DNA of 32,000 bases from Delftia acidovorans NBRC 14950 (GTDB taxonomy: Bacteria; Pseudomonadota; Gammaproteobacteria; Burkholderiales; Burkholderiaceae_C): positions 150,001 through 182,000 of the forward strand of contig NZ_BCZP01000010.1 of the NCBI RefSeq assembly GCF_001598795.1, read 5' to 3'. The notes under the pieces were generated by a model. The model ran no database searches. It saw nothing but the letters and a program-made list of their open reading frames with translations, and had not been told where the DNA came from. Below are positions 680-14,774 of the stretch, in pieces (position 1 is the stretch's first letter; each line of letters starts with the position of its first letter). A program made the translations under genes and the position numbers.

Positions 680-3793
<3,114 letters not shown>

Positions 3794-4066
3794 CGGGAAA
3801 ACCCCTGCGAAGGCGAACCCGCCATGATAGGTCAGAACCCGTGCCACCGCATGGCGGCTCGGTCTGCGGGGCGGCAGGGTCTGCCGCGGCGCCCCTTCAC
3901 AAAACTGTCTTGCACTGCCTTGCATAACCCAGCCACCCCGCAGCGCCGGCCTATGGGCGAGAATGGCGGATTGCTTGCCCCCACAACAGTGCACCCCGTG
4001 CTCGATTCCCCCACACCCGTCCACGGCGCCCAGGCGCCAGCCCCCTCCTCGGCCGCATCGGGCCGC

Positions 4067-5242
4067 ATGACCCCGCAGGAACGCCGATCCAGCGCCAGCC
4101 TGGCGCTGATCTTTGCGCTGCGCATGCTGGGCCTGTTCCTGGTGCTGCCGGTGTTCGCGCTGGAGGCGCGCAAGTACCCGGGCGGGGATGATCCGGCCAT
4201 GATCGGCCTGGCCATGGGCCTGTACGGGCTCACCCAGGCCGTGTTCCAGCTGCCCCTGGGCCTGGCTTCGGACCGGTTCGGGCGCAAGCGCGTCATCGTC
4301 GCCGGGCTGCTGGTCTTTGCCGCGGGCAGCCTGCTGGCGGCCACGGCCGACTCGCTGCTGGGCCTGATGTGGGGCCGGGGCCTGCAGGGCGCGGGCGCCG
4401 TCTCGGCCGCCGTGACCGCGCTGCTGGCCGACCTCACGCGCGACAGCGTGCGCACCAAGGCCATGGCCATGGTGGGCGGCAGCATCGGACTCATGTTCGC
4501 GCTGGCCCTGGTGCTCAGCCCCCTGCTGGCTGCCTGGGGCGGGCTGCCTGGCATCTTCGGCCTGACCTGCGCCCTGGCGCTGGCGGGCATTGCCGTCGTG
4601 CTCTGGGTCGTCCCGCCCGAGCCCGCGCGCCACGCCGACCAGCCGCGCGGCCGCATGGCCGAGCTGTGGCGCCACGGCGATCTGGTGCGCCTGAACCTGG
4701 GTGTGTTCGTGCTGCACACCGTGCAGATGTCCATGTGGGTGGCCGTGCCCGCCATGCTGGTGCAGGCAGGCCTGGACAAGCAGGCGCACTGGCATGTCTA
4801 CCTGCCGGCCGTGGTGCTGTCCTTCGCCGCCATGGGCGGCCTGTTCGCCATGGAGCGGCGCGGGCGCCTGCGCGCGGCCCTGCTGGGCGCCATCGCCCTG
4901 ATCACCCTCGTGCAGATCGGCCTGGGCCTGCTGGCGGCCGGCGGCGCGCAGCCGCCACTGTGGGCCATGGCCGTGCTGATGTTCGTGTTCTTCTGCGGCT
5001 TCAACGCGCTGGAGGCCACCCAGCCCAGCCTGGTATCGCGCATGGCCCCGTCCCCGCTGCGCGGCGCGGCGCTGGGCGCCTACAACACGCTGCAATCGCT
5101 GGGCCTGTTCGCAGGTGGCGCGCTGGGCGGCGCCGTCGCCAAATGGGCCGGCATGCCGGGCCTGTTCACCCTGACGAGTGTCCTGGCCGTGCTGTGGCTG
5201 GTCGTCACCTGGCCGCTGCGCCCCGTGGGCCGCCACGGCTGA
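4067..5242 (+). CDS. MFS transporter
   Basis: Track ORF 3779..5242. From [31 protein letters not shown] onward it shows multiple hydrophobic helices and the MFS motif-A-like [13 protein letters not shown]. An alternative in-frame start exists at 3953. It is divergent from uvrA and upstream of ssb. Confidence 0.85.
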
Positions 5243-5402
5243 ACGGCGGATTTTCAGACGGTTACAAGCCGCCGCCACAGGCGGTTGCCACGGGATATCC
5301 GCCCCCTGCCATCGGCGGACGGCTTGCGGCACAATGGCGCGTCTGGCCCGGGATCCATCCCTCTATGCCCGGGCCACTTCCCTATGTAAAGGTATTTCAC
5401 TC

Positions 5403-5969: not shown

Positions 5970-5999
5970 ATCCGAAGAGGATTGTTTTTGTTGATTCGG

Positions 6000-6035
6000 G
6001 CCCGCCTGCTCTTCGGAGAGGCGGGCTTTTTCTTT
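6000..6035 (+). terminator. Rho-independent terminator of ssb
   Basis: GCCCGCCT (6000-6007) pairs with AGGCGGGC (6019-6026). An inner CTC/GAG pairing closes a TTCG loop (6012-6015). The run TTTTTCTTT follows at 6027-6035, 31 nt after the ssb stop. Confidence 0.8.
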
Positions 6036-6118
6036 GCCAGTCGCATGCCGACCCCGCTGAAGCGAACCGAGGCCCAGGCCGCAGCGGATGTGCCGCAGCT
6101 GTGCAAGCCAGCCAGACC

Positions 6119-6185
6119 TTGATCGTCTTCTATATAAAGAATAAAATATTTATCTTTGAATGATTTTTTAATATTTAAAGATAAA
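6119..6185 (+). promoter_or_regulatory. Candidate sigma70-type promoter plus inverted-repeat operator of hipBA
   Basis: TTGATC (6119-6124), a 17-nt spacer, then TAAAAT (6142-6147). A perfect 9-bp inverted repeat TTTATCTTT (6149-6157) / AAAGATAAA (6177-6185) follows. The direct repeat AATATTTA occurs at 6145-6152 and 6170-6177. All of this lies just upstream of the hipB ATG at 6190. Confidence 0.45.
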
Positions 6186-6189
6186 AATA

Positions 6190-6510
6190 ATGAATCTTGG
6201 ACTTTACTCTTCCTCACAAATCGCGGCAGAGCTATCGTCACGGCTGCGCAAGCATCGCATCGCCCAAAAGTTCACTCAGGCGGAACTGGCCAGCCGTGTA
6301 GGCGTATCCAAGGCCACCATCGTCAACATGGAGGCAGGCAAGAACGTCTCATTCGAGACCGTGATTGCCGTTGTACAGGTGCTGGGCCTTGCCATTCAGC
6401 TTGAAGAGCTGTTTCTTTATCAACCACGCACGATTGAAGAGCTTGAAAGGATTTCAACTCTTCCTCAGCGGGTGCGTTCCCTGAAAGCTTCACATGGTTC
6501 AGAAGATTAA
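6190..6510 (+). CDS. hipB: XRE-family HTH antitoxin, HipB-like (106 aa)
   Basis: The HTH segment is FTQAELASRVGVSKATIVNMEAGKNVS. It sits immediately upstream of a HipA kinase gene and overlaps it by 17 nt. It lies in low-GC DNA. Confidence 0.8.
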   Translation: MNLGLYSSSQIAAELSSRLRKHRIAQKFTQAELASRVGVSKATIVNMEAGKNVSFETVIAVVQVLGLAIQLEELFLYQPRTIEELERISTLPQRVRSLKASHGSED

Positions 6511-7747
6511 TGTCTACTACGAAGGCTGGGGCGACAAATTTCATTGGGCAACCCTTGGTGCAGCCGACGCCAGAAGCAGCATTATTTTTGAATATACCGA
6601 CGAGGCTTTTGCCAAGGGACTGGAGCTATCGCCCTACCTTTTCCCGCTTGTAAAGGGACGAGATTTCTCCCAATCTCTACCAAGACACCAATTAGGTCTA
6701 CCAGGCCCTGTCTACGATTCTTTGCCGGATGGATGGGGTTTGCTCCTGATGGACAAACTATTCCAAAAACGTGGATTGGACCCTGCTCGGTTATCTGCGC
6801 TGGATCGATTGGCATATGTCGGCGACAGCGCATTAGGTGCAATGACATTTGCACCTGCTGATAGTTTCATGAAACAGCCTCAAGCAGATATTCCTATGGC
6901 AATGCTTGCACAAGAAGTGCAACAAGTGCTTGAGGACAAGGACACAGCTCTGCTAGCGCAACTCGCCCTGGTGGGTGGCTCGCCTCATGGGGCTCGGCCC
7001 AAGGCGCTGGTCTATCTGAATAGCGAGACACATCGCGCGAGCACCGTACCCATGGAGGGCGCTGAACCTTGGCTGGTGAAATTTCCCGCAATGAATGAAC
7101 ACTCCGAGGTTTGTGCCATTGAGGATCTCTACATCAAGTCTGCCAGTGCATGCGGGCTTGAGGCGCCGCCTACCGTCAGCTTGGATTTGGGACAGGGGCT
7201 GTCTGCCTTTGGCATCAAACGCTTCGACAGAGAAGGCAAGTACCGCGTTCCTGTCCACACCTTGGCTGCATTTGTTGGCGCTGATTTCCGGGTGGCCGGG
7301 TCCATCGGCTATATCACCTTGATTCAGGCAACACGATTTCTGACCAGAGATTCAAGGGAAGTGAAAAAAGCCTTTGAACGCGCTGTGTTCAACGTGATTT
7401 TCAACAATCGGGATGACCACGGAAAGAATTTCTCCTTCAGGATGGGAAAGGATGGCCATTGGAAGCTTGCCCCGGTTTATGACATAACCTTCAATAGAGG
7501 ACCGGGCGGCTACCATCAAATGGACGTAGCAGGCGAGGCATCCATTATTCGATTGGCGCATCTGCAACAGCTCGGCAAAGAAGCTGGAGTCAGCAAAAAA
7601 GAAACAATAGAAATCATTTCGAGAGTTGCGCAGGAGGCATCTTTATTCTCTGCACGAGTGCAGGAATACGATGGCGCCATCCGCAGGCAAACAGAACAGA
7701 GTATCTCGAGAATTCTTCAAGCGAATATCAAAGCGGCCACATCATAG
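6494..7747 (+). CDS. hipA: HipA-family Ser/Thr kinase toxin (417 aa)
   Basis: An N-terminal HipA coupling domain (YYEGWGDKF..., SLPDGWGLLLMD) is followed by a P-loop-like VGGSPHGARPKALV. The kinase core reads WLVKFP..., IKRFDRE, and the catalytic motif NNRDDHGKNFSF with APVYDI. Confidence 0.9.
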   Translation: MVQKINVYYEGWGDKFHWATLGAADARSSIIFEYTDEAFAKGLELSPYLFPLVKGRDFSQSLPRHQLGLPGPVYDSLPDGWGLLLMDKLFQKRGLDPARLSALDRLAYVGDSALGAMTFAPADSFMKQPQADIPMAMLAQEVQQVLEDKDTALLAQLALVGGSPHGARPKALVYLNSETHRASTVPMEGAEPWLVKFPAMNEHSEVCAIEDLYIKSASACGLEAPPTVSLDLGQGLSAFGIKRFDREGKYRVPVHTLAAFVGADFRVAGSIGYITLIQATRFLTRDSREVKKAFERAVFNVIFNNRDDHGKNFSFRMGKDGHWKLAPVYDITFNRGPGGYHQMDVAGEASIIRLAHLQQLGKEAGVSKKETIEIISRVAQEASLFSARVQEYDGAIRRQTEQSISRILQANIKAATS

Positions 7748-7767
7748 GCGCCGCATCCATGGCGCCT
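7746..7767 (+). terminator. Hairpin at the hipA 3' end (possible weak terminator or islet boundary)
   Basis: AGGCGCC (7746-7752) pairs with GGCGCCT (7761-7767) around an 8-nt loop. There is no T-tract, so terminator function is uncertain. Confidence 0.25.
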
Positions 7768-8096
7768 TCATGATCGGAGCGGCGCTTCCCGCCCCCCCGA
7801 ACACCCACCCCCTCGTACAATCGCGCCCGTGATTTCAGTCCACCGGCACCGTCAACCCGAGGCTCGCCATGCGCGCAGCCGCGATGCCGCGCGCCTTCAC
7901 AGCTTCACGCTGGCCCGCATCGCGCGCGGCTCGCAGAGCCGGCGTTCGGGCTGCACCCGCCTGGCGCCGCCGTAGCACGGCCGAACCGTACAAGCCGCCA
8001 GGTTTCGGGCATCGCCCGACGCCCGGCATGTTCATTCCCGTCTACAAAATCCTGCTCCGCCTTGTCACACCCAGCGCGGCGGGGCCGGCCATTTCC

Positions 8097-9551
8097 ATGT
8101 CGAAACACCCCCATCCCTTTCGCGCCGAGTGGGCGCCCAGCATTCCGCGCGAGCTCATGGCCGGCGCCGTGGCCACCTTTGCGCTGATCCCCGAGGTCAT
8201 CGCCTTCTCCTTCGTGGCCGGGGTCGATCCCGCCGTCGGGCTGTTCGCCTCCTTCATCATCAGCATCGTCATCGCCTTCACGGGCGCGCGCCCGGCCATG
8301 GTGTCGGCGGCGGCGGGCTCGGTCGCGCTGGTGGCGGCGCCGCTGGTGCATGCGCATGGCGTGCAGTACCTTTTTGCGGCCGGCATCCTTGCGGGAGCCG
8401 TGCAGATCCTGTTCGGCCTGCTGCGCCTGGGCGTGCTGATGCGCTATGTGTCGGGCTCGGTGCGCACGGGCTTCGTCAATGCGCTGGCCATCCTGATCTT
8501 CTCGGCCCAGATACCGCACCTGATCGGCGCCAATGCCGCCACCTGGGCCATGGTGGGTGCCGGCCTGCTGATCATCTACGGCCTGCCCCGGCTGACCACG
8601 GCCGTGCCCTCGCCCCTGGTCTGCATCGTGGTGCTGACGGTGGCGGCGCAATGGCTGGACCTGCCCCTGAAGACGGTCGCCGACCTGGGCCTGCTGCCGG
8701 ACGGCCTGCCCAGCTTCGGGCTGCCGCAGGTGCCTTGGTCGCTGGAGACGCTGCGCCTGATCGCCCTGCCCGCGCTGGCGATCGCCATGGTGGGATTGCT
8801 GGAGTCCATGATGACGGCCAGCGTGGTCGATGAACTCACGGACACGCCCAGCTCCAAGAACCGCGAGTGCAGCGGCATCGGCGTGGCCAACATCGCGGCC
8901 AGCCTGTTCGGCGGCATTGCCGGCTGCGCCATGATCGGCCAGACCGTGGGCAATGTGCGCTACGGCGGCCGCGGCCGGCTGTCCACGCTGTTCGCGGGCG
9001 CCTTCCTGCTCATCCTGATGGTGCTGCTCAAGCCCTGGGTGTCCCAGGTGCCGGTGGCGGCGCTGGTGGCCATCATGGTGATGGTGTCGGCCTCCACGCT
9101 GGACTGGGGATCGGCCCGCGCCCTGCTCAGGCATCCCAAGCTGTCCAGCGCCGTCATGCTGGCCACCGTGGTGGTCACCGTCGCCACGGACAACCTGGCC
9201 GCCGGCGTGGGCGTCGGCGTGCTGCTCAGCGGGGTGTTCTTCACCTTCAAGGTCTCAAGGCTGCTGTCCGTCGAGAAGACGCAGGACGGCGCAGGCCTGA
9301 CCTACCGCGTATCGGGCCAGGTCTTCTTTGCATCGGCCGACCAGCTGGTCGATGCCTTCGACGTGCGGGACATCGAAGGCCGGCCGGTGCGCATCGAACT
9401 GACCAACGCGCATTTCTGGGACATCACGGCCGTCAATGCGCTGGACAAGGTCTGCCAGCGCCTGCGCAAGCACGGCAGCACGGTCGAGGTGACGGGCCTG
9501 AACGAACACGGCCGGGCACTGGTGTCGCGGCTGGATATCGGCATCGAGTAG
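8097..9551 (+). CDS. SulP-family inorganic anion transporter with C-terminal STAS domain
   Basis: From MSKHPHPFRAEWAPSIPRELMAGAVATFALIPEVIAFSFVAGV there are many TM helices. A STAS-like tail follows (YRVSGQVFFASADQLVDAF...FWDITAVNALDKV). The ATG at 8097 is in frame with track ORF 7869..9551. Confidence 0.9.
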   Translation: MSKHPHPFRAEWAPSIPRELMAGAVATFALIPEVIAFSFVAGVDPAVGLFASFIISIVIAFTGARPAMVSAAAGSVALVAAPLVHAHGVQYLFAAGILAGAVQILFGLLRLGVLMRYVSGSVRTGFVNALAILIFSAQIPHLIGANAATWAMVGAGLLIIYGLPRLTTAVPSPLVCIVVLTVAAQWLDLPLKTVADLGLLPDGLPSFGLPQVPWSLETLRLIALPALAIAMVGLLESMMTASVVDELTDTPSSKNRECSGIGVANIAASLFGGIAGCAMIGQTVGNVRYGGRGRLSTLFAGAFLLILMVLLKPWVSQVPVAALVAIMVMVSASTLDWGSARALLRHPKLSSAVMLATVVVTVATDNLAAGVGVGVLLSGVFFTFKVSRLLSVEKTQDGAGLTYRVSGQVFFASADQLVDAFDVRDIEGRPVRIELTNAHFWDITAVNALDKVCQRLRKHGSTVEVTGLNEHGRALVSRLDIGIE

Positions 9552-9631
9552 GAAACCTGCCCCGGGCATGGTTTTCCAGCGCTGGCAGACCGCTTGCTTT
9601 CCTGGGGCAGACGCGGCCTGCTCTTTCGCAA

Positions 9632-9700
9632 AGAGAAATCCGTCAAATATCGAATGAGTCATTCAGAAATTTCTCTATTTCAAAGAGTTACTCTTTTGAA
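9632..9700 (+). promoter_or_regulatory. Nested palindromes in the AT-rich leader of the unknown cassette (candidate operator/promoter region)
   Basis: AGAGAAAT (9632-9639) and ATTTCTCT (9669-9676) enclose a perfect 13-bp palindrome GAATGAgTCATTC (9652-9664). An imperfect palindrome TTCAAAGAG-tta-CTCTTTTGAA follows at 9679-9700. The region lies 70-140 nt upstream of the ATG at 9771. Confidence 0.35.
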
Positions 9701-9770
9701 ATAAAGATTTCAGCCCGCTCATTTAGGATCTGGACCGCTGTCACCTCCCCAAACCCGTCCCATCTCTTCC

Positions 9771-10256
9771 ATGCGACTCAGATCCGTTATCTTGGGCCTT
9801 GTCCTCCTGGTCTTTGCCGCATCCGCATCCTGGTTGGCCGTGTATGGGTTTCTCATCTCCCAGGAGGACTACTCGCCTGAGCGGGGATCGCTCAGATATT
9901 ACGTAGGAATCTCTTCCCTGATACGCAATGCGCCAGCGACAGGGACGATGGCGCAGCCCGCCTACTTCGGCTCCGTCGGTGATGGCAACAAGCCCCCGCA
10001 GTCCGAGATGACCTTCGAGACCAGCGCCAACGACATCACCGAAGCCACTGCGGCCATCACCAGCTACCTGCGCCAGAAGGATTTCCACCAGAGATCCATC
10101 GATGCCGAAAATGCCGCCGCATCGTTTGTCCCCGAGGGAGAGCGCCTTGTCCAATACGCGCAATACGCGTCATCGGCCGGCGAAGTTGCCGTACTGGCGG
10201 TCACCCAGGCAATGGCAACAGGCCTGTGCAAGGTCACGCTCACCCATTACGACTGA
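9771..10256 (+). CDS. Hypothetical membrane-anchored protein (161 aa), no family recognised
   Basis: Clean ORF with codon-like periodicity. It has one N-terminal hydrophobic helix (VILGLVLLVFAASASWLAVYGFLI) and then a ~125-aa soluble region. It lacks a Shine-Dalgarno and has lower GC than its neighbours. Confidence 0.6.
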   Translation: MRLRSVILGLVLLVFAASASWLAVYGFLISQEDYSPERGSLRYYVGISSLIRNAPATGTMAQPAYFGSVGDGNKPPQSEMTFETSANDITEATAAITSYLRQKDFHQRSIDAENAAASFVPEGERLVQYAQYASSAGEVAVLAVTQAMATGLCKVTLTHYD

Positions 10257-10258
10257 AC

Positions 10259-10951
10259 ATGTCCAGCAGATCCCACATACCCCGAAGACTCATCTATACC
10301 TGCAACTGCGGATGGATTGACCTGGGCCACCTCCAATCGGTCGAGAGCCATCGCAATCGCTACGCCAGTGCGGCCTATCTCTGGAAAGACATACTGCATG
10401 AGCGCGGCATCGGGATTCCCGGTCACTCCGACAGCCATCTGATTCAATACAAGCAATCCATGGGGCGCTTTGGCCTGACCCAGGAATTTGCCAAGTTCTA
10501 TCTCGTCAAGAAAGGCCTGTCTCTTTCAGCGAAGCGCTCCGTGGCCCTGGCCATATTCATGGAGGTTTCCATGGGTTTCGAGAGCCTGCAGGCATCCATG
10601 TCGCTCCTCACAGACAGTGGATTCAGCCAGGAAGACCTCGTTTCCAACCTGATTGGCTTCTACATGGTCGTGCACGGGGCACTGGACTGGAAGAACCTGT
10701 GCAAGCCGGTTTCCACCGAGGCATCGCTGGCCGTCTGGGATGCCAACGGTCCCGTGGGAAGCCATAAAAACAAAGTCTTCCAGCCGCAGTTCCACGCCTG
10801 CGAGGAATGCAAGAGCAAGCACCATGTGCAGCTGCCGCGCTTTCCTTCCGCGTTTCAGTCCATACAGCCCGCATCCAAGGGTTTGCACTTCATCGAAGCA
10901 TCTGATGGGCTGCCAGTGCCAAAGCACATGCTTTCGACACTGTTTCCCTGA
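10259..10951 (+). CDS. Hypothetical Cys/His-rich soluble protein (230 aa), no family recognised
   Basis: The ATG at 10259 lies 2 nt after the upstream TGA and is in frame with track ORF 10226..10951. Motifs are YTCNCGWIDLGH, SGFSQEDLVSNLIGFY and HACEECKSKHH. There is no signal peptide. Confidence 0.65.
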   Translation: MSSRSHIPRRLIYTCNCGWIDLGHLQSVESHRNRYASAAYLWKDILHERGIGIPGHSDSHLIQYKQSMGRFGLTQEFAKFYLVKKGLSLSAKRSVALAIFMEVSMGFESLQASMSLLTDSGFSQEDLVSNLIGFYMVVHGALDWKNLCKPVSTEASLAVWDANGPVGSHKNKVFQPQFHACEECKSKHHVQLPRFPSAFQSIQPASKGLHFIEASDGLPVPKHMLSTLFP

Positions 10952-10984
10952 GTCTTCCTGCCCTGCGCCAGAACGCAGGCGCCC

Positions 10985-12082
10985 TCACCGCTCATCGAAC
11001 GACAGCACCACGCGCTCGGTCAGCGGATGCGCCTGGCAGGTCAGGACAAAGCCGCAGGCGACTTCGTTCTTGTCGAGGGCGAAGTTGCGCTCCATGCGCA
11101 CCTCGCCCTCGACCACCTTGGCGCGGCAGGTGCCGCAGACGCCCGAGGTGCAGGAATAGGGCACTTCCAGCCCGGCCGAGGAGGCCGCGTCCAGGATGCT
11201 GGCCTGGCCGCGCGTGAAGGGGATCTCGCGCGAGAGGCCATCGCGCACCAGGGTGATGCGGGCGGTGGCGGCGTCGCCGGGCTGGGCCTCGTGCACCACG
11301 GCGCCCACCGTACCCTGGCCTGCGGCCGGCAGGGCCACGCCGAAGCGCTCGATGTGGATGCGCTCCTCGGCCACGCCGGCGGCCAGCAGGGCGGCCTCGG
11401 CCTCGTCGTTCATCTGGAAGGGGCCGCAGATGTAGACATGGTCGATGTGCGCGGCCGGCACCACGCCCTGCAGGAATTCGGCGATCTTGCTGCGGTCCAT
11501 CACACCCATGTTCAGCGGCAGGTCGGTGTGCTCGTCCGAGAACACATGCTGCAGCGACAGCCGCGACATGTAGCGGTTCTTGAGGTCCTCGATCTCCTCC
11601 TTGAACATGGTGGACTGCAGCTGGCGGTTGCCGTAGATCAGCGTGAAGCGGCTGGCGGGCTCGCGCGCCAGCACGGTCTTCATGATGGACAGGATGGGCG
11701 TGATGCCGCTGCCGCCGGCGACGCCTACATGGTGGCGCGCGGCCCCGGGCTCGATGGGCACGAAGAAGCGGCCCTGGGGCGCCATGACCTGCAGCGTGTC
11801 GCCGGGGCGCAGATGCTCGTTGATCCAGTTGGAGAACTGGCCGCCGCGCACCTTGCGCACGCCCACGCGCAGCTCGCCGTCATCCACGCCTGCGCAGATG
11901 GAGTAGCTGCGGCGCAGGTCCTGGCCGTCGATCTGGTGGCGCAGGGTGAGGTACTGGCCCTGGGTGAAGCCGAAGACCTCGCGCAGCGCGGGCGGCACGT
12001 CGAAGGAGACGACCACGGCCTCGGCCGTGTCGGGCGCAATGCTGCGCACGCGCAGCGGGTGGAACATCGTGGTCGTGGTCAT
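10985..12082 (-). CDS. paaE: Phenylacetyl-CoA 1,2-epoxidase reductase subunit PaaE
   Basis: MTTTTMFHPLRVRSI opens the protein. It has the FNR-type FAD motif RSYSIC, the NAD motif GVAGGSGITP, and a C-terminal plant-type 2Fe-2S cluster CTSGVCGTCRAK...C. It is the lower part of track ORF 10985..13048. Confidence 0.93.
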   Translation of the reverse strand: MTTTTMFHPLRVRSIAPDTAEAVVVSFDVPPALREVFGFTQGQYLTLRHQIDGQDLRRSYSICAGVDDGELRVGVRKVRGGQFSNWINEHLRPGDTLQVMAPQGRFFVPIEPGAARHHVGVAGGSGITPILSIMKTVLAREPASRFTLIYGNRQLQSTMFKEEIEDLKNRYMSRLSLQHVFSDEHTDLPLNMGVMDRSKIAEFLQGVVPAAHIDHVYICGPFQMNDEAEAALLAAGVAEERIHIERFGVALPAAGQGTVGAVVHEAQPGDAATARITLVRDGLSREIPFTRGQASILDAASSAGLEVPYSCTSGVCGTCRAKVVEGEVRMERNFALDKNEVACGFVLTCQAHPLTERVVLSFDER

Positions 12083-13755: not shown

Positions 13756-14774
13756 GCGGCCTCCTTGCGGGTCTGGTTTCTCTGTGTCTGCTTGCGGGCA
13801 TGGGCCAGGGCGGCCTCGCGCACCCAGGCGCCTTCGTCCCAGGCCTTGACGCGGGCGCCCAGGCGCTCGCGGTTGCAGGGGCCGTCTCCGGCGATCACGC
13901 GCCAGAACTCGTCCCAGTCGATGGGGCCATGGTCATGGGCCTGGCGGGCCTCGTTCCATTTCAGGTCGGGGTCGGGCAGGGTCACGCCCAGCACCTTGGC
14001 CTGGTCCACCGTGGCGTCGATGAACTTCTGGCGCAGCGCGTCGTTGGAGATGCGCTTGATGCCCCAGCGCATGGACTGCGCGCTGTTGGGCGACTGGTCG
14101 TCGGGCGGGCCGAACATCATGATGGACGGCCACCACCAGCGGTTGACGGCGTCCTGCACCATGGCCTTCTGCGCCTCGGTGCCCTGCTGCATCATGGTCA
14201 GCAGCGCCTCGTAGCCCTGGCGCTGGTGAAAGCTCTCCTCGCGGCAGATGCGCACCATGGCGCGCGCGTAGGGCGCATAGGAGCAGCGGCAGATGGGCAC
14301 CTGGTTCATGATGGCCGCGCCGTCCACCAGCCAGCCGATGGTGCCCATGTCGGCCCAGGTCAGCGTGGGGTAGTTGAAGATGGAGCTGTACTTGGCCTTG
14401 CCCGTGTGCAGCGCGTGCAGCATCTGGTCGCGGCTGCTGCCCAGCGTCTCGGCGGCCGCGTAGAGGTACAGGCCATGGCCGCCCTCGTCCTGCACCTTGG
14501 CCAGCAGGATGGCCTTGCGCTTGAGCGTGGGCGCGCGGCTGATCCAGTTGCCCTCGGGCAGCATGCCGACGATCTCGCTGTGCGCGTGCTGGCTGATCTG
14601 GCGCAGCAGCGTCTTGCGGTAGTTGTCGGGCATCCAGTCCTTGGCCTCGATGAATTCGCCGGCATCGATGCGCTCGTCAAAGCGCTGCTGCAGGCGCATT
14701 TCGTCGGCCGAGCGCACGGCCTTGCCGCCATCGCCCGCTTCCTTGCCCATGGTGTCCATGGCCTGGGTATACAT
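13752..14774 (-). CDS. paaA: Phenylacetyl-CoA 1,2-epoxidase catalytic subunit PaaA
   Basis: 340 aa with di-iron ferritin-like motifs ([30 protein letters not shown]). Confidence 0.95.

Follow-up and report, generated by a model that had tools for sequence, protein, structure and literature searches.

What are the two small genes of foreign composition that lie between sulP and the convergent paaE gene in Delftia acidovorans NBRC 14950? We approached this question in a window of 32,000 nucleotides (contig NZ_BCZP01000010.1, positions 150,001 to 182,000), in which the two genes form a cassette at window positions 9552-10984. Our results make it likely that this cassette is a horizontally acquired effector-immunity pair of type VI secretion (T6SS), in which the second gene, ORF2, encodes a toxin of the CapCone-1 family and the first, ORF1, a membrane-anchored immunity protein. 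The evidence was computed, and comprises the family identity of ORF2, the conservation of its active-site motif, the linkage and topology of its partner, the association with T6SS genes in other genomes, and the foreign composition of the cassette. The two genes are the following:

9771-10256, plus strand: ORF1, 161 amino acids, ending with the stop codon TGA at 10254-10256.
10259-10951, plus strand: ORF2, 230 amino acids, starting with the ATG at 10259, without a signal peptide.

This two-gene cassette of foreign composition is real and no chance feature. Its layout is that given in the initial annotation, with 2 nt between the two genes on the same strand and 33 nt (10952-10984) from the end of ORF2 to the stop codon of paaE. 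The ATG at 10259 is favoured over an upstream GTG at 10226, because the alignment of homologues begins with M-S-S/T-R. The foreign composition, initially estimated by hand, was borne out: the G+C content of the segment 9552-10984 is 0.567 against 0.681 for the whole window, and at third codon positions (GC3) it is 0.73 in ORF1 and 0.71 in ORF2, as opposed to 0.88-0.94 in native genes such as sulP, paaE, paaC and paaA. Only 4% of windows of equal size have a lower G+C content, all of them inside a hipBA islet.

The identity of ORF2 can be read from published data. The Lipocone superfamily was described by Burroughs, Nicastro and Aravind (bioRxiv 10.1101/2025.01.14.632903; eLife 2025;14:RP108061, PMC12419801). 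They defined three families named CapCone, which share a clade with TelC, the lipid II phosphatase toxin of Streptococcus intermedius, and CapCone-1 is among them a soluble toxin domain of the superfamily (PMC12419801). Residues 3-139 of ORF2 are identical to the 137-residue core of WP_047328038.1 in the source file CapCone-1.tsv (eLife 2025;14:RP108061); ORF2 is therefore an already catalogued CapCone-1 protein, and its initial description as unassignable to a named family has to be given up. A homologue from Noviherbaspirillum (P0015, WP_119767272.1) is likewise contained in these data. The family is large, with 331 matches in a word-indexed search and 946 representatives at 50% identity (E <= 1e-3), and relatives were found in 272 species genomes.

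The published CapCone signatures comprise, in H2, a glycine six residues before the histidine and an xD motif four before it; in H3, a glutamate, which is a conserved acidic residue, ancestrally Glu; and in H4, S/GxxSxx before the aspartate, with Phe-Ser three before it, then a small residue and an asparagine four after the aspartate, and a glycine near the end of H4 (PMC12419801). ORF2 carries the H2 signatures as G18, I20-D21 and H24, and those of H4 as S120-G-F122-S123-Q-E-D126, S129-N130 and G133. Its H3 acidic residue is either E102, which is Glu or Asp across the family, or E108, both of which lie in the helix of residues 89-113. In an alignment of 37 diverse members, the invariant residues are C15, G18, W19, D21, H24, E108, Q111, S120, S123, E125, D126, S129, C148 and C184, while G133 is present in at least 90%. 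The predicted active site consists of H24, E102 or E108, and D126. A confident AlphaFold2 model of ORF2 (predicted local distance difference test score, pLDDT, 91.8; predicted template modelling score 0.90) shows a hairpin at residues 11-21 that runs into H24, followed by an additional strand (51-53), a long hairpin spanning 56-84 and long helices (89-113 and 126-139). This predicted order of secondary-structure elements fits the published description of CapCone, whose core is a cone of four helices with a beta-hairpin clasp, one further strand and a cap (PMC12419801). The N-terminus of ORF2 is not hydrophobic, in agreement with the initial statement that it lacks a signal peptide; the protein has no transmembrane helix, and a transmembrane-like segment is absent from 85 of 87 homologues.

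How close is ORF2 to the better-known members of this clade? The Pfam family DUF4056 (PF13265) matches it across the Lipocone core with E = 4e-4 and 20.2 bits, below the gathering threshold of 23.6 bits; the match covers profile positions 69-187 of 266, leaving the first ~68 positions unmatched. Of the 37 members, 19 match DUF4056, the best with E = 8e-8; ORF2 is by sequence a relative of DUF4056, and by Pfam's gathering-threshold rule no member of it; CapCone-DUF4056 is a separate family, linked mainly to outer-membrane beta-barrels (PMC12419801). Members of the prok-TelC family have an aspartate six residues after the H4 aspartate, which pairs with an arginine of the C-terminal helix (PMC12419801), and ORF2 has an isoleucine at this position, residue 132. 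Searches of PDB sequences, with ORF2 alone and with the family profile, did not match TelC, and searches of NCBIfam, PADLOC (at E <= 10) and PDB sequences with single sequences and family profiles returned nothing for either protein of the cassette. ORF2 is thus classified, from its sequence, as a standalone CapCone-1 domain that is predicted to work like TelC while falling outside the prok-TelC family.

Beyond the published Lipocone core, ORF2 continues with a C-terminal extension of about 90 residues (140-230; window 10676-10951). This extension is strongly conserved, with C148, D161, G164, K170, N171, P176, C184 and P196 invariant, and might either determine delivery or belong to the cap. 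A speculative possibility is that C148 and C184, neither of which is in the catalytic core, become linked by a disulfide when the protein reaches the periplasm. The database record P0004, a gene call of 299 amino acids in a single 6.79-Mb ENA genome, shares 99% identity with ORF2 across 75% of its length, which points to a cassette that is frameshifted, fused or differently called in a single Delftia assembly.

The association with the T6SS emerges from the neighbourhoods of relatives, for which we surveyed 85 non-redundant loci, clustering the neighbouring proteins and scanning the cluster representatives against Pfam. In 8 loci, from Vibrio, Pectobacterium, Serratia and Photorhabdus, hcp adjoins the family: Vibrio ruber and three species of Pectobacterium show the order hcp-effector-partner, hcp follows the partner in three Serratia loci, and it lies on the opposite strand in the one Photorhabdus locus. 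Of the 85 loci, 5 have a vgrG gene no more than 10 kb away, with locus L093 as a further case, and in Sorangium the homologue is situated directly upstream of vgrG-PAAR-DUF4123. In Caldimonas brevitalea the pair is found amid several Tae4/Tai4 genes, together with Rap1a, Imm35 and transposase genes. Longer members carry the CapCone-1 domain at the C-terminus, behind DUF4280 (PAAR-like), Rhs/YD-shell, eCIS_core/DUF4157 or LysM domains; the DUF4280 fusion has a VgrG gene in the same locus, and the eCIS_core/DUF4157 fusion occurs once together with Amidase_2. These contexts reproduce those published for CapCone-1, whose network contains HCP, RHS at the N-terminus (94) and DUF4157 (21), with an enrichment for 'Biological conflict' (PMC12419801). 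A DUF4056 bicistron in Salmonella pathogenicity island 6 was independently flagged as a candidate T6SS effector in a Salmonella study, and Delftia acidovorans strains possess one T6SS cluster (PMC4572682). Two features expected of a T6SS effector-immunity pair are present in the family, namely linkage of the effector to T6SS structural or spike genes in some genomes and an adjacent partner that is predicted to be periplasmic.

ORF1 belongs to this partner family. An AlphaFold2 model (pLDDT 87.6) consists of a transmembrane helix at residues ~2-30, in line with the N-terminal helix initially reported, followed by an alpha+beta domain of ~130 residues. Besides the hydrophobic helix, its family shares the motifs EDYxPxxGSxxYYxGISSLxR and YFGSVGDGNKP. 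ORF1 has 23 direct homologues and no Pfam, NCBIfam or PDB sequence match, and a Pfam scan of 23 members of the partner family at E <= 1 reported no hit, DUF1795 included. Searches with hidden Markov models found a same-strand partner of the ORF1 type next to the toxin gene in 65 of the 85 loci, upstream in 41 and downstream in 24; the upstream partner of Burkholderiales and the downstream partner of enterobacteria are homologous (hhalign probability 91%, E = 1e-6). Of 71 partners, 67 have an N-terminal transmembrane-like segment, flanked by a net charge of +2.1 towards the N-terminus and -0.9 towards the C-terminus, a bias that predicts a signal anchor in N-in/C-out orientation whose domain lies in the periplasm. 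Alignments were adequate for 37 loci, and without exception the partner is conserved less well there than the toxin (mean identity 33% versus 50%); within Delftia the partner is 97-98% identical and the toxin 100%. Extra copies of the partner occur as well, with two in tandem in Pectobacterium (L061) and an orphan paralogue in Delftia. By its sequence features, and by analogy to TipC, which protects against TelC, we read the ORF1-type partner as a putative immunity protein against a toxin that acts in the periplasm.

In many Delftia records ORF1 appears as a form of 102 amino acids that starts at M60 and lacks both the membrane helix and the EDY...GISSLxR motif, and few records contain the form of 161 amino acids. 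The longer start is the correct one, because the conserved motifs lie upstream of M60; the short records probably reflect a systematic misannotation of the start codon.

When did Delftia obtain this pair? The cassette occupies the same position between sulP and paaE in the representative genomes D. acidovorans MMO-42 and D. tsuruhatensis, with 97-98% DNA identity to the window, and 857 contigs, belonging to several species of Delftia, contain the exact ORF2 sequence. Only in Delftia is the pair flanked by SulP and PaaE; in Paracidovorax it lies between the transketolase and GAPDH genes. Downstream of paaE in the closest non-Delftia orthologues, from Variovorax, Comamonas and one contig with a 91% identical PaaE, the pair is absent, and relatives with 86-91% identical PaaE have a periplasmic-binding-protein/ABC transporter there instead. 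The GC3 deficit, the differing contexts and the absence beside non-Delftia paaE together support an old horizontal acquisition in the Delftia lineage, and with it the initial view of a horizontally acquired bipartite module. Of the junction comparison that had been suggested, the absence of the pair in PaaE relatives could be seen, and a clean insertion junction could not; around the cassette itself, a search for flanking direct repeats or an insertion scar yielded short repeats at chance level only.

How might such a pair work? The export route in Delftia, the site of action, the substrate and the mechanism of immunity are inferred, and the scenario is as follows. ORF2 (~26 kDa, without PAAR) would be made in the cytoplasm without a signal peptide, exported by the single T6SS of Delftia, most simply as Hcp or VgrG cargo, and delivered into the periplasm of Gram-negative neighbours. 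In that compartment the His/Glu/Asp site, formed by H24, E102 or E108, and D126, would act on a lipid whose head group is attached through phosphate, and would either cleave or exchange this group. TelC suggests by analogy that the likeliest target would be the undecaprenyl-diphosphate linkage in lipid II or in a related intermediate on the carrier lipid, so that cell-wall synthesis would be blocked; another envelope lipid is a possible alternative. ORF1 would be held in the inner membrane by its N-in/C-out helix, presenting its alpha+beta domain to the periplasm, and would neutralise toxin arriving from sister cells, in the way that TipC counters TelC; it would do so by binding the toxin directly at the surface of the membrane.

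The closest experimentally studied counterpart is TelC-TipC of Streptococcus intermedius, a pair that belongs to type VII secretion (T7SS; PMC5555719, PMC6193138). Both toxins belong to the same superfamily clade and share a predicted chemistry on phosphate-linked lipid head groups; in both pairs the toxin would act outside the cytoplasm only and the immunity protein is membrane-anchored and faces outwards, features that are predicted on the Delftia side. The two pairs differ in that ORF2 falls in CapCone-1 and not in prok-TelC, with Ile at position 132 in place of the TelC-specific Asp, has no LXG domain, has no sequence or Foldseek match to TelC, and resides in a Gram-negative host, for which T6SS rather than T7SS delivery is expected; ORF1, in turn, has no detectable similarity to TipC. 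With small T6SS cargo pairs that act in the periplasm, such as Tae4-Tai4 and Tse1-Tsi1, the cassette shares a bicistronic, often orphan arrangement of an effector lacking a signal peptide and a periplasmic immunity protein. It is co-located with Tae4-Tai4 in Caldimonas, and CapCone-1 pairs of Enterobacterales form hcp-effector-immunity modules. The fold is unrelated, however, ORF2 is predicted to attack a lipid head group and not an amide bond of peptidoglycan, and in the CapCone-1 pairs of Burkholderiales the immunity gene precedes the effector gene. Compared with published CapCone-1 proteins there is no difference in family membership, ORF2 being a listed, standalone member with all signatures, whose relatives show the Hcp, Rhs and DUF4157 contexts. 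The Delftia locus has no account in the CapCone-1 paper (PMC12419801), and where the published immunity is a BamE-like lipoprotein, the partner read here as immunity is a signal-anchored alpha+beta protein.

Several observations weigh against an effector-immunity pair of the T6SS. There are no T6SS genes in the window, about 85% of the related loci have neither hcp nor vgrG within 10 kb, and ORF2 lacks a recognised T6SS marker such as PAAR or MIX. A Foldseek search of the PDB with the ORF2 model gave no significant match (best E = 0.34), and TelC was not among the hits listed; what connects ORF2 with TelC is therefore the evidence of motifs and profiles, together with the published classification. 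The literature holds no experimental test of any CapCone protein, which makes the substrate of ORF2 a guess; the characterised members of the Lipocone superfamily are TelC and PTDSS1/2 only (PMC12419801). Between the genomes of D. acidovorans and D. tsuruhatensis that were compared, ORF2 shows 100% identity, which would also fit a conserved housekeeping role. Finally, those who described the family assign a PsbP/Mog1-like partner of CapCone-1 to transport and not to immunity (PMC12419801), and the best fold matches of ORF1, weak as they are, are Mog1p and PsbP.

Could ORF1 then be a PsbP/Mog1-fold transport or adaptor factor of the T6SS, comparable to the Eag/DUF1795 chaperones, with the immunity to the CapCone-1 toxin encoded elsewhere or not needed? 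In the published network, a PsbP/Mog1-like partner (88-89 loci) is labelled 'toxin effector transport mediating domain', citing Eag-type chaperones, and is called diagnostic of T6SS secretion, and the immunity named for CapCone-1 is a lipoprotein BamE-like protein (PMC12419801). Foldseek, searched with the ORF1 model, gave Mog1p as its weak top match (E = 0.048, probability 0.80), followed by PsbP and LpqN, and, as with those chaperones, there is a genetic link between ORF1 and a T6SS toxin. Eag chaperones reside in the cytoplasm and bind transmembrane helices of their effectors. ORF2 offers no such helices, the signal anchor found in nearly all partners has a charge bias that places the domain in the periplasm, and the partner family does not match DUF1795. 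A partner that evolves faster than its toxin at every locus compared, and that occurs in tandem or orphan copies, is likewise not what a transport factor would lead one to expect, and the Delftia cassette contains no other candidate immunity gene. Moreover, the PsbP/Mog1 node (89) is nearly as large as the set of Rhs fusions (94), so that the node could reflect classical EagR genes, and its identity with the ORF1 family is uncertain. If the two are the same, topology, evolutionary rate and copy number of the partner would argue for immunity rather than transport. We therefore consider a transport role for ORF1 unlikely.

On balance we lean towards ORF1-type signal-anchored proteins being the true cognate immunity of standalone CapCone-1 toxins and not a T6SS transport factor. 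They would form a new and widespread immunity family, found in at least 65 of the 85 sampled loci, with members ranging from Burkholderiales to Enterobacterales and Acidobacteriota; their fold may be PsbP/Mog1-like, and the Delftia pair would be the first model of a T6SS-delivered Lipocone toxin. Where CapCone-1 is fused to DUF4157/eCIS or PAAR-like modules, the adjacent small membrane proteins have no detectable similarity to ORF1. In locus L093 (1245-5924), vgrG and an unannotated gene of 301 amino acids are followed by a DUF4280::CapCone-1 fusion and a signal-anchored protein of 159 amino acids; in L094 (4001-7335), an eCIS_core+Amidase_2::CapCone-1 fusion is followed by a multi-pass membrane protein of 152 amino acids. 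The genes downstream of these two fusions probably represent alternative immunity families, unrelated in sequence to ORF1.

A second alternative takes the pair as a housekeeping envelope module, in which ORF2, as a lipid-head-group enzyme, would join with a membrane partner to modify membrane or cell-wall intermediates of the producing cell itself; this has been proposed for non-toxin Lipocone families such as CapCone-DUF4056. The weak similarity to that family, with its links to outer-membrane beta-barrels (PMC12419801), the single conserved locus in the Delftia genomes compared and the scarcity of T6SS genes near most relatives would agree with such a role. Yet ORF2 has neither a signal peptide nor a membrane segment with which to reach the envelope on its own, its domain is fused to PAAR-like, Rhs and DUF4157 delivery modules and adjoins hcp or vgrG, and the distribution of the pair is patchy and its composition foreign. 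Its location in a Tae4/Tai4 island in Caldimonas and the published enrichment for biological conflict likewise suit a weapon better than a housekeeping enzyme, and we regard this alternative as improbable.

Less probable still is a Cys-His hydrolase or metal-binding enzyme, such as a Tae-like peptidoglycan amidase, built from C15, C17 and H24 and the C-terminal cluster HACEECKSKHH, in which the initial annotation had seen a metal site or catalytic centre. C15, H24, C148 and C184 are indeed invariant, Tae4/Tai4 pairs neighbour the homologue in Caldimonas, and one fusion includes an Amidase_2 domain. However, C17 and the histidines of the C-terminal cluster are not conserved among the 37 members; no solved papain-like or NlpC/P60 fold or sequence was matched; and H24 falls exactly on the position of the Lipocone H2 histidine, with all flanking signatures present, while C148 and C184, outside the catalytic core, could instead form a disulfide. 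A Tae-like Cys-His amidase was rejected on grounds of conservation and fold.

That the pair is a toxin-antitoxin or anti-phage module tied to hipBA is scarcely credible: its tight two-gene, foreign-composition layout 1.8 kb from hipBA had suggested these options alongside effector-immunity, but neither protein is matched in PADLOC, the partner is predicted to face the periplasm, hipBA is missing from the slot in other Delftia genomes that keep the cassette, and the neighbourhoods elsewhere are T6SS-related and no defence islands, so that of the functions first considered only effector-immunity gained ground, through the Hcp, VgrG, PAAR-like and Rhs links and the recurrent partner.

With these alternatives weighed, an effector-immunity pair of the T6SS remains our preferred reading of the cassette. 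Its novelty as a toxin is low, since the family has already been published and computationally defined. What retains interest is that a T6SS-delivered Lipocone toxin would be new, and that the partner may serve either immunity or secretion. Lipocone toxins are a recently proposed class, of which only TelC, from a Gram-positive T7SS, has been tested, and a standalone, orphan two-gene CapCone-1 cassette in the culturable, single-T6SS Delftia would be a convenient system for questions of delivery, substrate and partner role. If the immunity reading is true, the Delftia pair would be a minimal and tractable Gram-negative counterpart of TelC-TipC, attacking lipid-linked envelope precursors. For annotation, two 'hypothetical proteins' become a predicted effector-immunity pair, of which the ORF1 start is truncated in many Delftia records.

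Around the two genes, three further features of the window deserve description:

9552-9770, plus strand: leader upstream of ORF1, G+C content 0.50, with two related 15-nt palindromes.
10960-10982, strand not assigned: G+C-rich hairpin in the gap between ORF2 and paaE.
5975-7805, plus strand: variable slot between ssb and sulP, with hipB at 6190-6510 and hipA at 6494-7747.

The leader is low in G+C and contains palindromes, in line with the initial description. Its palindromes, CTCTTTCGCAAAGAG at 9621-9635 and CTCTATTTCAAAGAG at 9673-9687, recur in the loci of the other two Delftia genomes (L007 and L008) and were not found upstream of the pair in other genera; they may mark an operator or promoter region. 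Scans of 9400-11100 for sigma-70 promoter and terminator consensus sequences made no call. Reading of 9740-9770 and 10236-10258 revealed no purine-rich Shine-Dalgarno sequence before either ATG, the upstream sequence being C-rich, and on this point, too, the first description holds. The sole other upstream region that was read, that of the partner gene in Acidovorax (L013), is pyrimidine-rich and likewise without an obvious Shine-Dalgarno sequence. Such C- or pyrimidine-rich upstream regions hint at non-canonical initiation or low basal translation. The hairpin downstream of ORF2 (dG -17.2 kcal/mol, z = -3.05) lacks a U tract and was not called by the consensus terminator scan, but could be a terminator-like stem-loop that serves both convergent genes.

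The slot between ssb and sulP is variable in its own right. Its hipB/hipA islet, with a G+C content of ~0.51, is strain-specific; in D. acidovorans MMO-42 and D. tsuruhatensis NBRC 16741 (L007 6940-7551; L008 ~6928-7547) the slot measures ~610 bp, has no hipBA and encodes the orphan ORF1 paralogue, a protein of 165 amino acids with 40% identity and no toxin gene beside it. The hipBA genes are thus an independent variable islet outside the module, and their proximity, which the initial annotation had brought into its inference, does not make them part of it; the slot is tied to the cassette only by the orphan ORF1 copy.

Two of the related loci contain further genes of note. In Caldimonas brevitalea (L001; CP011371, 1-16693) the CapCone-1 pair occupies the middle of a densely packed island of T6SS effector and immunity genes: Tae4 is present at least twice and Tai4 five times, as genes or fragments, accompanied by Rap1a and Imm35 as well as by transposases and a ParE toxin. 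In Sorangium sp. So ce448 (L003) a second gene of 230 amino acids, at 13966-14658, lies directly upstream of a second vgrG, in a position equivalent to that of the homologue; it is negative with the family's hidden Markov model and may encode a different cargo effector in a duplicated vgrG module.

In the window itself, the cassette has uvrA, ssb, hipBA, sulP and the paa genes as neighbours, with uvrA and ssb divergent. The uvrA gene corresponds to an open reading frame of 1550 amino acids at 680-5332 on the minus strand, in which UvrA domains occupy residues 675-949 and are followed by ABC domains; its long N-terminal open extension is probably spurious, as is typical of high-G+C DNA.

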